Shown: positions 49,241 to 57,750, counted from the stretch's first letter. The stretch: 64,000 nt of DNA from GCA_000165345.1 CM000431.1:832001-896000, one strand, 5' to 3'. Translations and numbers: made by a program. Notes: generated by a model not told the origin, from the letters alone.

Positions 49241-52060
49241 TTAAATAACTCCTTTTAGAACGTAGGACATACAAACGATAAAGTATAAAATAAATGCTAA
49301 ACCCCAAATGCGATGAACTCTCCCTTTAGACAGTACGACAACCAGTGCTGATATTGGAAGGAAGTACAAGAGTTGGTAAGTAGCAGTAATAATTTGAGAT
49401 TCAAAGTGAAGGTGGATATCTTTTGAGAATCCTAATTGGATTGCTCTTACAAATACTGAACTTCCAAATCCAAATAGGAGAAGAAATACACATGCGCCAT
49501 AACATCCAGCGAGGCCCATATGTGCATGCCCAGCTCTTGAAACTGCTACATTAGCAAATAAGTCAGCAATTGAGTTACCCATTGCAACAATTGTGAGTCC
49601 AAGAATTGCAGGCTTAATTCCAAGGGTAAGCCCAATGACTTTAATGCATTCAACTAACTCGTTTACAAGGACTCCATTCCAATATATTGACATAATAATG
49701 CCAAAGAACATATCACAGTACATTAAAATGTCAGTTATAAACTTTCTGGTTTTAAATGATAATTGAACTTCTGGAAGCTTAATATTTGAGAAGGATCTAA
49801 CCCGATAGAGTCTATAATTCTGGGGATCATCTTTCAAGTCATCTTCACCTGTCTGATCATCTTTTCTTGTATTAAGAATACAAGTATATATGAAAAAGAG
49901 TACCAAAGATATAATAGATGAAAGAAGAAGAGCAATCAAGTAAAATAATGGGTAGCTGACGTAAATCTTCTTTTCAAATCCAACAGCCAAAACAATAAAT
50001 AAGGGTTGCATAATTTGTACTGATCTTCTAAGTGATGGAGACGGTACAGTTAAATACAATATAAACATGATTGGTGTCATTAAAAGTTGTCTAAAGAAAT
50101 CACAGAATTCAAAGAAGCCATCTAAAAGTCCCTCAAAGTCAGTATTAAAACTCATTCCTTGGAAAAATCCTTCACTTCTTTCATTTGATTGGGGTATCTT
50201 AAGTTGTAAAGTTGGGAAATTTGTACGATCATCAATAATGCATCTATCCTCTCTTAATCTTTGTCTTCCTCTCTTCTGTAACTTGAGAACATTTTCCTCA
50301 TGAGCAGGTGGAGGTAGAAGTGAATTGTGTAATGACTCAGTTTGATAAACAACTTCACTCATGGAAAGATTTCTTGAGAGTCTGACTGCATAGTCATCGC
50401 TTAGTAACACAAGTTGTGAGTGAGAACCGGATCTTTTAGTTTCATAATTAGAAATTGTGATTGATCCCAGGTTTGAAGAGTAGGAAGATGATGTAGCTGA
50501 GAAGTTGTTACTTTGGTAGGCATCAGAAATTGATATAGAATTAGAATTTCCAATTTGACTGCTTTGGTCACCTTTTAAGTGAGAAGCTGAAAGCTGTGAG
50601 CAGACTGGGGATTTAGATCTTTGGCTCTGGAAATTCCAAGGATTTGGAAGCTCAAGAGTATTTGCATAATTCCTCTCTCTATTTAAAAGATTCTTAGATG
50701 AATTTCTCTGAGGAAATGGAATCCTACAAGATTGTGCATTATTAACACCATATGCTTTTTCAAAGTCTTCATTATCTTTATCTCTTCCAAATCCATAATT
50801 TGAAGAAGGAGTCAGAACTTTACCGCTTAGATCATCATTTGTTAGACTAGGAGAGGGAGAATGAGTTGGAGTAAGCAAAAGTAAGGTCTTTTTAATACTT
50901 CTAGACTTGGAACCAATTCTATCCCAGTAGACATCACTATTAATAACTGTTCCTTTTTCTAGGAGCTGGCTTTTTTCATCATAAGAGAACTGTAAGTTAG
51001 AAAAAGATAACTTAATTGGAGGGATCTCTAAATCTGGAGTATTTCCATTGTCTGCTTTTTGAACATCTCTAATTGAATCAGGAGGAGTAAAAGGTATTGG
51101 AAGAACCGAAGGAATGGTATTGGAATAGCGATAATTAGGAATATCGCTAGTGATAGCAACATTTCTAAGGCTCAATTTACTTCCTCCCCTTACTTCATCT
51201 GAGTCAGTTACTTGCTCATATACTGGACCTACATATTCTTCCTTAATTGTTAGGTTTACTGGCATTGAAAGAGATGTATACTTCTCACTCCATTGAAGTA
51301 AAAGAACGTAAAATCCATAAGCAATTAATGGAATTACAGACATTTTTGAAGAAATGAATCCAAGGTGATGAATAATAAGTAGTTGAATTAATCCAATAGT
51401 GAGAGCAATTGTATCTCTTAGGTGATTAAATATTGGAATGTTAATATAATTTGAATTTTCACTGCTCTTTGAAAAAACCATTACACACCCAAAAACAACC
51501 AAGATAATAAATAAGCAAGCACCAATAACATCCCCAAGAAACACATCTACAGCATCTTTCTCTCCAATTGATACACTAATAATTCCGAGAATAACATCAC
51601 TGGCTGCATTACTAAATGCTAAGAGTGTAGATCCTGCAAATGTATCTGATAAGCTTAAACATTCAGCTAGCTTAATCATTAGAGATGAAATGTAAGTATC
51701 AGCAACGGTTCCACAAGCAATAAAAAGAATGCAGGACCATACAAGTAAGCATATAGCAAAAGTCACTTTGTTAAGGAGGAATCCAAAGAATGCAGAATTT
51801 CTTTCATTTGGTTGATCATTATCAAAAAGTGGTTCAAAAATATAAGTATAAAAGATTTTGGAGTAGGGAATTAGTGTAGATTGTTGTGATATTTCACTAA
51901 TCCAGTGGGATTGGTCCATAATGTTAAGTTCTGATCCATGGTCATCTGCGCTACAGCTACTATAGGATTCACATTCATCTGGAAAAGAAAATCCCCCTGT
52001 TTGATACTTCTCATTTGATAAATATATGAAAAATAGTAAAACCACAAAAATAGTCTTCAT
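49241..52060 (-). CDS. Cation/Ca2+ exchanger (Na+/Ca2+ exchanger, CCX/NCX family), 939 aa, with signal peptide and a large cytosolic loop.
   Basis: Two alpha-repeat regions: GSTLLAFSNAASDVILGIISVSIGEKDAVDVFLGDVIGACLFIILVVFG and GLTIVAMGNSIADLFANVAVSRAGHAHMGLAGCYGACVF. Multiple TM helices. N-terminal signal MKTIFVVLLFFIYLS. Confidence 0.8.
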   Translation of the reverse strand: MKTIFVVLLFFIYLSNEKYQTGGFSFPDECESYSSCSADDHGSELNIMDQSHWISEISQQSTLIPYSKIFYTYIFEPLFDNDQPNERNSAFFGFLLNKVTFAICLLVWSCILFIACGTVADTYISSLMIKLAECLSLSDTFAGSTLLAFSNAASDVILGIISVSIGEKDAVDVFLGDVIGACLFIILVVFGCVMVFSKSSENSNYINIPIFNHLRDTIALTIGLIQLLIIHHLGFISSKMSVIPLIAYGFYVLLLQWSEKYTSLSMPVNLTIKEEYVGPVYEQVTDSDEVRGGSKLSLRNVAITSDIPNYRYSNTIPSVLPIPFTPPDSIRDVQKADNGNTPDLEIPPIKLSFSNLQFSYDEKSQLLEKGTVINSDVYWDRIGSKSRSIKKTLLLLTPTHSPSPSLTNDDLSGKVLTPSSNYGFGRDKDNEDFEKAYGVNNAQSCRIPFPQRNSSKNLLNRERNYANTLELPNPWNFQSQRSKSPVCSQLSASHLKGDQSSQIGNSNSISISDAYQSNNFSATSSSYSSNLGSITISNYETKRSGSHSQLVLLSDDYAVRLSRNLSMSEVVYQTESLHNSLLPPPAHEENVLKLQKRGRQRLREDRCIIDDRTNFPTLQLKIPQSNERSEGFFQGMSFNTDFEGLLDGFFEFCDFFRQLLMTPIMFILYLTVPSPSLRRSVQIMQPLFIVLAVGFEKKIYVSYPLFYLIALLLSSIISLVLFFIYTCILNTRKDDQTGEDDLKDDPQNYRLYRVRSFSNIKLPEVQLSFKTRKFITDILMYCDMFFGIIMSIYWNGVLVNELVECIKVIGLTLGIKPAILGLTIVAMGNSIADLFANVAVSRAGHAHMGLAGCYGACVFLLLFGFGSSVFVRAIQLGFSKDIHLHFESQIITATYQLLYFLPISALVVVLSKGRVHRIWGLAFILYFIVCMSYVLKGVI

Positions 52061-54402: not shown

Positions 54403-57400
54403 ATGATGTGGCTTTTTCGTACATTATTATTTTTATTATCATTATTATGTTTGGGAGTTACAACGGTTTTTGGTGACTTGGAAGAAAATTCAAAAGCAAC
54501 TAATGGAAATGAAACACTTGAAGATTTGGCAAAGAAGCTTTTGGGAAAATTTGAGTCAATGGAATATCCTGGAATGCAGAATATTACGGATCCATTAACA
54601 AAAATAGTTTATGGACCATTTTTTTATGAGATTAACAATGTATCGCTACCTTTAAATATTACATCTTTGACAGGAGGAGCCTTTAATCCTCCAAGTAGTC
54701 ACGAATCAGCACAATATTACTATGAAAGTTTTGTGACTGAGCCATTTACTCCAGATCAGAGTGATGCTATTGCGTCATTTGAGGCAAGAAAAGTTATTAG
54801 GGGAGGAGTTGGAGCCCCAAATGGAACATATGTATTTTTCCAAGAAGAAATTCAATTACTTCCAAATTCAAGTTCTGGTGGAACTAATGGAGGTATTGGG
54901 GGAGGAAATAATGGAAATAATGGAAATAACAATGGAAATACAATACCAAATATTAAGCTTCCAGAAGGAAGTTTTGCTGTGAATGGAACAAGACTTCCAG
55001 TAGGAACAACAAGTTTTGGCCCAGTAACTTTCCCAAATGGAGCAATTTTGCCTTTGGGGGCTTTACTTCCAAATGGAACACTTTTACAGGCTGGAACAAA
55101 GTTGGGTCAAATGACCACTCTTCCAGGAGGAACTTTATTTCCAGGAGGTGCAACATTTCTGGAAGATTCTTCTTATAAACCAGTTTTGACTTTAAATATG
55201 AATTGTAACTTCATTGGGTCTCAGACATATGGATATAGATGTTCAAATAAAGCAGAATTAAAACCGGAAGCTTCATGTTGTATTACAAATACGCTATGTT
55301 ATTCAGTATCAGGATTTAGCAATATGACATCAGTGTCAATACCAGCAGGAGGAATCCTTCCATCAGGATCAAATCTTCCAAATAATTCCTTACTTTTGGG
55401 GCCATTAACTATTTCTACTAATACTATTTTTGGAGGAGGAGCTATATTACCGAATGGTGAAATAATTTCCCCAAATACTACAGTTCCATACGGAACAATA
55501 CTCCCGACTGGTACATTTATTGCTGATACTATTTATTTAGAGACCGGTTGTGTTTTAATGGGAGGACTAATAGCTTTTGGTTCATCTCCATTCATGATTA
55601 ATCTTCCAGCTGGGAGTAAACTAGGTCTTGGAACTTCGCTTGGAGGCGGAGCAATACTTAAGGGAATTTCATATTTAACTGGTGGAGCAATTTTCCCAAA
55701 TGGTACAATATTACAGCCAGGTACTATACTTCAGCCTCCATTGCATCCGGATAATGTAATAACAGAAACTTCCCTACTATTTAATTATCATTTGGGTATT
55801 CAGGATAATTTATCTTCTTGGGTATTACCTTCAGGAACTTTACTTCCAGGAGGGTTCTCAAATAGAGTTGCATTAGCAGTTTTGCAAGGAGGTTTTTACC
55901 AATTTAACGCACCTTTTGGTTATAAGAATGCTGTTTACAAATCTTCGATTGATAATCAGCAAGAGAAGAACGCAGGATTTTCTTCAGTTTCTAACATCTT
56001 TAATGATTTATCCACAAATCAGAACAATTTACATCCTTACTTTGATGATAATAGTGATTTATATGGTACAACTACAACATACTCATCCAATTCTAATTAT
56101 GGTTCTCAATCAGGCTCTTCAAATCTCATTGGATTTAGAGTATTAAATTATCAGATACCATCCTCAAGCAGTTATATGGAATTACCTCAACAAATGCTTT
56201 TAATAGATAATGCGTATTTCCCAAATGGTTTAAGTTCTAATGGCCCAATTCTTTTTTCTAATGGTACAATACTTCCAAGTCCTGTTATAATTAAGTCAAG
56301 TGTAACACTTCCACCTGGTACTTTTATTTTTGGAGCGTTATTAACTCCAAATGTTCAACTTGGAGGTCCATCTTTAGTTTTAGGTACTGCTGTTTTACCT
56401 CCATCTATCAGATTAAGTTCATCAACTTCTTTGCCATCAAAAGCTATTCTCCCTGGTGGAGCTTTCCTTCCTTTAGGAGGTGTTTTAACTGGTGATATTC
56501 TTTATCCATCAGGAAAAACTATTCAATCTGGAACATCTTTACCTTCTAACTCGTATATTAAACCAAATGCTTTACTTACTAATGGATTAGTTTTACCAGG
56601 AGGTGGAATTTTCCCTGGTGGAATTCTTATTCCAAACGGACAATTTGTACAACCAATGTCTGTACCACCTGGTACAATGTTCCCACCTACATCTACTTTA
56701 CTTGGTACTATACATATGACAAAAGGAGGAGCTTTATTACCAGGTGGAGCAGTCTTTTCAGGAAATAGTACTGTTCCTTCTGGTTCTCAGTTATTAATTG
56801 GAGCTGTATTATCGCAAGGGACTATTTTACCAGGAGGTATTGTATTTCAATCTGAAACAATAATTAGTGGAGGAATTCAAATTTCTCCATTAAATTCTCT
56901 CTCAGATTTGGACATTAATCAAGATGATTTTAATCCTGATAACTACCCTCCATTCTTCCCTCAAGATCCAAGTAATCCAGGTGGTAATAGCCCAAACAAC
57001 AATACTTATATAACAGCTCAAGTTAATATTACTAATTTCTACTATAAGGATCAATCTCAAGACTCTTTTTCATTCTTCAAAAACTTATTCTCTTCAAGTC
57101 TAGCTCTATCAATGGGGTTTGAGACTAATTCTATTCTAATCAATTCTTTATCTCCAGCAGAAAACCCTTATAATATTTCAGGCTATGATGGATCTTTTCT
57201 GTCTACATCTTTATCAAGTCCAAGCTCTTTCTCTTATTTAGATAACTTCTATTCATCAGATCAAAAAGGAATATCTGTTACATTTGAAATACACCCCAAA
57301 CTTGAAAACTCTTCTCTAGAAGATATTATTGAGGTTTTATTGAATAATGTCATTCAAAATCCTTCAAGTTCTTTCAATCGTATCTTCTCTTGGGTTGGAT

Positions 57401-57750
57401 TTATGATTCTTGCTGACAAGTCACCCAATTTCTGGACTAGACATCTTAGAGGTGGAAATAGAAAGATTATCAAGATTCCATATTTGGCAAATATTACTGA
57501 TTTCTCAACAATTCAAAACGCCTTTGATGGAAATGAGATCCATAACTTACTAGGAATTATTCAGAGTCGAAACCATAATGAATCATCTGTACTTATTGAT
57601 CATATAGATGCTGATAAGAATGTTGAAAATGTATCATTATGGGGGAATTCATTCAAAGAGAAAACCCAATATCAAAGTCAAGAACAGAATCAAAACCAAT
57701 ACCTATATCAGGAACAAAGTCAATATCAAAACCAATTAGGGTATATGTAA
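54403..57750 (+). CDS. Secreted repetitive glycoprotein (1115 aa) built from ~6-residue [LFI]-P-x-G-[TA]-x repeats; Q-rich C-terminus.
   Basis: Signal peptide MMWLFRTLLFLLSLLCLGVTTVFG. Long arrays such as LPNGTL-LQAGTK-LGQMTT-LPGGTL-FPGGAT and GGAIFPNGTILQPGTILQPP. Many NGT sequons inside the repeats. (AATGGAAAT)n-like GNNGNN tract at 54905..54943. Confidence 0.85.
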   Translation: MMWLFRTLLFLLSLLCLGVTTVFGDLEENSKATNGNETLEDLAKKLLGKFESMEYPGMQNITDPLTKIVYGPFFYEINNVSLPLNITSLTGGAFNPPSSHESAQYYYESFVTEPFTPDQSDAIASFEARKVIRGGVGAPNGTYVFFQEEIQLLPNSSSGGTNGGIGGGNNGNNGNNNGNTIPNIKLPEGSFAVNGTRLPVGTTSFGPVTFPNGAILPLGALLPNGTLLQAGTKLGQMTTLPGGTLFPGGATFLEDSSYKPVLTLNMNCNFIGSQTYGYRCSNKAELKPEASCCITNTLCYSVSGFSNMTSVSIPAGGILPSGSNLPNNSLLLGPLTISTNTIFGGGAILPNGEIISPNTTVPYGTILPTGTFIADTIYLETGCVLMGGLIAFGSSPFMINLPAGSKLGLGTSLGGGAILKGISYLTGGAIFPNGTILQPGTILQPPLHPDNVITETSLLFNYHLGIQDNLSSWVLPSGTLLPGGFSNRVALAVLQGGFYQFNAPFGYKNAVYKSSIDNQQEKNAGFSSVSNIFNDLSTNQNNLHPYFDDNSDLYGTTTTYSSNSNYGSQSGSSNLIGFRVLNYQIPSSSSYMELPQQMLLIDNAYFPNGLSSNGPILFSNGTILPSPVIIKSSVTLPPGTFIFGALLTPNVQLGGPSLVLGTAVLPPSIRLSSSTSLPSKAILPGGAFLPLGGVLTGDILYPSGKTIQSGTSLPSNSYIKPNALLTNGLVLPGGGIFPGGILIPNGQFVQPMSVPPGTMFPPTSTLLGTIHMTKGGALLPGGAVFSGNSTVPSGSQLLIGAVLSQGTILPGGIVFQSETIISGGIQISPLNSLSDLDINQDDFNPDNYPPFFPQDPSNPGGNSPNNNTYITAQVNITNFYYKDQSQDSFSFFKNLFSSSLALSMGFETNSILINSLSPAENPYNISGYDGSFLSTSLSSPSSFSYLDNFYSSDQKGISVTFEIHPKLENSSLEDIIEVLLNNVIQNPSSSFNRIFSWVGFMILADKSPNFWTRHLRGGNRKIIKIPYLANITDFSTIQNAFDGNEIHNLLGIIQSRNHNESSVLIDHIDADKNVENVSLWGNSFKEKTQYQSQEQNQNQYLYQEQSQYQNQLGYM

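Follow-up and report, generated by a model that had tools for sequence, protein, structure and literature searches.

Within a 64,000-nucleotide stretch of Cryptosporidium parvum DNA (GCA_000165345.1 CM000431.1:832001-896000; here called the window), we found a gene whose product carries three blocks of six-residue repeats, and the data indicated that this protein, cgd3_3550, is probably a soluble, secreted and genus-specific one, in which the hexads form β-solenoid rods and which serves as a structural or adhesive component of the macrogamete. The ORF is single and complete, comprising 1115 codons plus a stop and encoding a precursor of 118.7 kDa, and no competing ORF of at least 100 amino acids was present on the opposite strand. 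As a coordinate anchor we used cgd3_3520 on chromosome 3, which lies at 881241-884060 and thereby at 49241-52060 of the window; counting from it through the SnpEff neighbor list and two small intervening plus-strand ORFs led to cgd3_3550, and this is the C. parvum chromosome 3 gene described here. The product name of cgd3_3550 in CryptoDB is "Trimeric LpxA-like protein," which implies a superfamily-level match in some other resource. Literature searches for CMU_010660, for hexapeptide repeat, β-helix or solenoid proteins of Cryptosporidium, and for magnesium transporter or calcium exchanger together with Cryptosporidium retrieved nothing relevant.

Table 1. Features of cgd3_3550 along the chain, with positions in the window
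Feature	Residues	Position	Strand	Basis or remark
Complete single-exon gene	1-1115	54403..57750	+	ORF call; full-length orthologues; coordinate anchor; product name
Signal peptide	1-24	54403..54474	+	Hydrophobicity; putative cleavage after VFG
Conserved N-terminal domain	39-155	54517..54867	+	5 invariant sequons
Gly/Asn-rich variable linker	156-184	54868..54954	+	34% G, 34% N
Hexad block 1, about 11 hexads	185-252	54955..55158	+	Register listing, periodicity
Cys-containing connector	253-310	55159..55332	+	Invariant Cys 268, 280, 292, 293, 299
Hexad block 2 (23 hexads, a conserved insert, two more hexads)	311-448 + 474-485	55333..55857	+	Register listing
Ser/Asn/Thr-rich variable linker	516-574	55948..56124	+	Probably disordered
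Hexad block 3, 38 hexads; longest, most regular array	604-831	56212..56895	+	
Conserved C-terminal domain	867-1017	57001..57453	+	60% identity to C. muris
Variable C-terminal tail, Gln-rich low-complexity end	1018-1115	57454..57747	+	7% identity to C. muris

As summarized in Table 1, the chain alternates conserved domains and hexad blocks with variable linkers. The strongly hydrophobic N-terminal stretch spans residues 1-27 (MMWLFRTLLFLLSLLCLGVTTVFG, then D), and its counterparts in all four species compared are divergent in sequence yet hydrophobic, in agreement with the signal peptide proposed in the initial annotation. Kyte-Doolittle windows of 19 residues exceeded 1.6 at the N-terminus and at one place within block 3, and at no other site. 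Since the C-terminal tail has no hydrophobic end, a GPI-anchor signal is unlikely, and the possibility of a GPI-anchored or transmembrane protein was rejected, given neither a hydrophobic C-terminus nor a hydrophobic segment outside the blocks beyond the signal peptide. A "GPI-anchored" remark in PMC7193590 refers to the neighboring exchanger cgd3_3520 and not to cgd3_3550.

The N-terminal domain aligned with that of C. muris at 68% identity, with 64% invariant columns and no gaps, and gave no match in Pfam, NCBIfam or PDB searches. The linker that follows it is interrupted by indels and is 24% identical to that of C. muris, and its DNA contains a 9-bp repeat (GGAAATAAT, 2.9 copies). In the cross-species alignment block 1 had 72% invariant columns and no gap columns, and in the orthologues it was matched by the block-3 HMM at about 1e-6 to 1e-8; each Cys column of the connector read CCCC in the four species; and block 2 had 66% invariant columns, likewise with no gaps, and was aligned in the PDB search to left-handed β-helix (LβH) coils of the γ-carbonic anhydrase (γ-CA) 7tgh_C2. 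The 59-residue linker between blocks 2 and 3 is 14% identical to that of C. muris, and gaps occur in 43 of the alignment columns that cover it. For the C-terminal domain, which matched no family in Pfam or PDB searches, a secondary structure of β-α-β-β-α-α was predicted, with a low-confidence AF2 model as its only source. The tail, for which comparison with C. hominis XP_665020.1 gave 109 identical residues out of 115, contains an 18-bp DNA repeat (3.9 copies, 57666-57736) and, as described initially, ends in a Gln-rich sequence (11 Q in the last 31 residues), but this feature is limited to C. parvum and the C. hominis fragment.

The six-residue periodicity reported in the initial annotation was borne out by autocorrelation, with a lag-6 identity z of 9.2 and harmonics at 12, 18, 24, 30 and 36. 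The period-6 Fourier power of hydrophobicity reached 41.8 in block 3, against about 1 expected, and 7.7-7.8 in blocks 1 and 2, while the N- and C-terminal domains yielded about 0.4-0.6. The motif [LFIVMY]-P-x-G occurred 28 times, compared with 3.1 ± 1.7 in shuffled sequences, and 14 times when followed by [TA], compared with 0.35. The unit can be written as [hydrophobic]-[LIF]-P-x-G-[TAS], so that the originally described order of a hydrophobic residue, Pro, any residue, Gly and Thr or Ala matches the position-specific counts. Over three sub-blocks in consensus register (185-250, 400-447 and 676-831), the core position was hydrophobic in 82-100% of hexads (mostly L, I and F) and well conserved, the next position was Pro in 25-64%, the Gly position held Gly in 58-82%, and the small-residue position (i+4) was occupied by T, A, S or G in 62-91%; the remaining hydrophobic position was the least conserved one in block 3b (35% invariant). 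Judged from these residue frequencies, the hexad positions show the pattern that a solenoid demands. The repeats, which are not repeated at the DNA level, were nonetheless described too generously at first: the three blocks amount to 446 of the 1115 residues (40%), not most of them, and the period is not strict, since the register slips at a 4-residue unit (396-399) and the Pro position shifts between 604-663 and 676-831. We also considered an 18-residue super-period, suggested by a stronger signal at lag 18 (z = 7.2) than at lag 12 (z = 5.7), and rejected it because the Fourier power at 18 was about 0.1 and hexad-to-hexad identity revealed no three-hexad rhythm; a period-18 sequence signal is not required by the LβH fold.

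The protein had further been portrayed as saturated with dozens of NGT sequons. There are five, compared with 0.76 expected, and the excess is attributable to the P-N-G-T variant of the hexad. N-x-S/T sites of all kinds numbered 22, compared with 17.3 ± 3.6 in composition shuffles, and seven of them lie inside the hexad blocks. The five NGT sites and nine further sequons are invariant. Thus, by sequon counts, the density of putative sites in cgd3_3550 is not above the expectation from composition, and the protein, if glycosylated, is not unusually rich in glycosylation sites.

Full-length orthologues were identified in C. canis (84%), C. ryanae (72%) and C. muris (58%). Repeats and signal peptide are retained in these orthologues, so that the protein passes the refuting condition set in the initial annotation. 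Variation in repeat number among orthologues, which the initial annotation had suggested looking for, was not seen: block lengths are identical in the four species, with zero gap columns, and it is in the linkers that indels abound. Beyond the genus the searches recovered no full-length relative, and among 1.84 billion representatives the only matches outside Cryptosporidium were metagenomic hexad arrays (E = 1e-10 to 1e-3), for which cluster look-ups returned "hypothetical protein" names only. Querying a word index for homologues with the block-3 profile was uninformative, as it was swamped by low-complexity words and gave 0 matches, the orthologues included. The gene cgd3_3550 is single-copy, and the searches indicated that it is restricted to the genus Cryptosporidium.

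When a full-length profile was compared with the whole PDB, all 11 matches were LβH proteins, and so were 14 of the 15 matches of a generic hexad profile, the best of which was the γ-CA 7tgh at E = 0.0018. Together with the product name, these matches uphold the resemblance to left-handed β-helix hexapeptides noticed at the outset. The accompanying statement that no obvious named family exists for the protein does not hold at the level of fold or superfamily, for which the CryptoDB entry already supplies a name. Solved LβH coils carry the same x-φ-φ-P-x-G hexads (such as "SLVPAG" and "RLIPSG"), including the last coils of a γ-CA, and the region of a metagenomic protein matched by the block-3 HMM is assigned to Hexapep by Pfam at 44.6 bits. 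Searches with cgd3_3550 itself gave no Pfam family at E ≤ 1, Hexapep included, and no NCBIfam family at E ≤ 0.1. With respect to the LβH sequence rule, the aliphatic residue at i and the small residue at i+4 fit, but the [GAED] preference at i+1 fails, with Pro taking this position in 50-64% of the hexads of blocks 1 and 3b and in 25% of those of block 2b. Taken at the level of sequence, the links of cgd3_3550 to LβH proteins are marginal, all at E = 0.002 or weaker.

Expression of the gene is strongly raised in female gametes. The Log2 CPM values were 5.39 in asexual stages, 9.43 in cultured females and 6.39 in in vivo females, and the Log2FC between female and asexual stages is +4.04, about 16-fold (Tandel et al. 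2019, supplement 4). The gene is listed in the sheets "Female in vitro only," "SporoVSinvitro-Shared" and "CparvumOnly," and its transcript is present in sporozoites too. Female-gamete up-regulation is compatible with the role of an oocyst or vacuole structural glycoprotein or adhesin put forward in the initial annotation; expression was about 8-fold lower in in vivo than in cultured females, and this drop is less easily reconciled with a wall protein of the COWP kind. The gene was absent from the supplements of the AP2-F paper, the protein was absent from the sporozoite vesicle proteome table, and the proteomics supplements of PMC5549699 and PMC10034466 contained none of its tryptic peptides.

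From the signal peptide, the lack of a membrane anchor and the rise in female gametes, we infer the localization and function proposed here. The mature protein, of about 116 kDa, would enter the secretory pathway and remain soluble, and its three segments of about 11, 25 and 38 hexads would each adopt a three-sided β-solenoid fold, for which a left-handed β-helix whose coils comprise three hexads is the likeliest form. Such solenoids would be stiff, nearly uncharged rods of roughly 2, 4 and 6 nm, joined by flexible Gly/Asn-rich and Ser/Asn-rich linkers and flanked by the conserved N-terminal domain, the five-cysteine connector and the conserved C-terminal α/β domain. The macrogamete may export this structural or adhesive component, for example as matrix of the wall-forming bodies or of the oocyst wall, and sporozoites would then inherit the transcript. 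The whole would act as a scaffold without enzymatic activity, since the chain is devoid of the conserved His of hexapeptide acyltransferases and γ-carbonic anhydrases.

The last point bears directly on the reading of cgd3_3550 as a genuine trimeric LpxA-like enzyme, either a secreted acyltransferase or a γ-CA, for which the product name and the weak PDB matches to γ-CAs and to sugar and lipid acyltransferases could be cited. A γ-CA needs three Zn-binding His residues and acyltransferases need a catalytic one, but none of the hexad blocks contains a conserved His: H448 and H771 vary, and the sole invariant His of the whole protein is H1014. Hence the protein does not appear to be an enzyme of this family. 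The PDB matches also span generic coil hexads only, no enzyme model of Pfam or NCBIfam matches, and a 1115-residue chain with three blocks and a signal peptide differs in architecture from those enzymes. We therefore rejected the enzymatic reading, whose probability is very small indeed. Handedness is a less one-sided matter. AF2 on the full-length protein, with a four-species alignment, gave an unusable model (mean pLDDT 28.7), and on block 3 it gave a β-solenoid of low confidence (mean pLDDT 52, pTM 0.32) that superposes on right-handed β-helices at about 3.3 Å and on left-handed ones at about 12 Å and hence looks right-handed. The hexad blocks might accordingly form a right-handed three-sided β-helix like those of Ag43, TibA, Awp1 or the bactofilins, in a self-associating or host-binding adhesin. 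However, with such pLDDT and pTM values the handedness of the model is unreliable, and a Foldseek search of the PDB with it returned nothing significant. Furthermore, the PDB profile matches were almost only LβH proteins and included no autotransporter, pectate-lyase-like protein or bactofilin, and right-handed β-helices are as a rule built on a 19-25-residue repeat that yields three unequal β-sheets (PB1-PB3), whereas the period here is 6 with no longer super-period. On balance a right-handed helix is unlikely, and a left-handed fold is the more probable one.

It could also be argued that the Pro/Gly hexads do not fold at all and make up a flexible elastomer- or mucin-like spacer for the display of glycans, as in elastin or silk, since AF2 assigned low confidence everywhere, the blocks are composed of 10-12% Pro and 16-19% Gly with hardly any charged residues, and seven sequons fall within them. 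A spacer of this kind is hard to reconcile with the way the blocks have been maintained: over the span from C. parvum to C. muris, the blocks keep 57-72% of their columns invariant, with 0 indels and a constant repeat number, whereas the low-complexity linkers are 14-24% identical with many indels. Elastomeric disorder is associated with a 2P+G value of about 0.6, and the blocks reach 0.38-0.43; in addition, the period-6 power of their hydrophobic positions is very strong. We consider an unfolded spacer distinctly improbable, and folded β-solenoid rods remain the preferred reading.

Cryptosporidium is a major cause of childhood diarrhea, and the composition of its resistant oocyst wall is poorly known. 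Being single-copy, genus-specific, secreted, strongly conserved and female-induced, cgd3_3550 is a reasonable candidate for tagging or knockout in studies of oocyst formation or transmission. Its fold class was already named in CryptoDB; if the proposal holds, the left-handed β-helix extends from cytosolic enzymes to an extracellular scaffold, and cgd3_3550 points to a class of Pro-containing hexads that is unmodelled in current family libraries. A bolder and rather doubtful version would make it the first eukaryotic secreted, non-enzymatic hexapeptide β-helix of the Pro type, a rigid uncharged fiber of the macrogamete or oocyst wall, within a wider, uncurated class of extracellular hexad solenoids that takes in flagellin inserts, cell-wall peptidases and giant-virus-like proteins.

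Compared with known LβH hexapeptide proteins (PF00132; LpxA, LpxD, GlmU, DapD, γ-CA, eIF2Bε, dynactin p25/p27 and CcmN), cgd3_3550 has the same long six-residue runs, with a large aliphatic residue at i and a small one at i+4, but about half of its hexads carry Pro instead of [GAED] at i+1, and the residue at i+3 is usually Gly. It also differs from the LβH enzymes in having no catalytic or metal-binding His, in scoring below Pfam and NCBIfam thresholds, and in possessing a signal peptide and three separate, near-chargeless blocks in a 1115-residue multidomain chain. The right-handed adhesins (Ag43, TibA, UpaB, Candida glabrata Awp1 and pertactin) are extracellular rod-like β-solenoids that function as adhesins or wall proteins, and they provided the best superpositions on the low-confidence block-3 model (about 3.3 Å over about 180 residues), yet no sequence similarity to them was detected and their repeats are about 19 residues or longer, as opposed to a period of 6. 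Metagenomic arrays sharing [LIVF]-P-x-G-[TA]-x include flagellin/FlgL inserts (P0012, P0015), a VanY peptidase tail (P0011), signal-peptide "LPGG" proteins (P0009, P0010) and AT-rich, possibly giant-virus-like sequences (P0007, P0016, P0020). Like cgd3_3550, they show faint, sub-threshold matches to LβH families only, and their likeness to it is confined to the repeats, with no common flanking domain, and may reflect homology or convergence. Finally, cgd3_3550 differs from the COWP family in lacking COWP-type Cys-rich repeats (it has 7 Cys in total) and in its fall in in vivo females, while it has in common with the COWPs and other secreted proteins of female gametes a signal peptide, female up-regulation and restriction to the genus; a location in the wall is among the possibilities proposed here.

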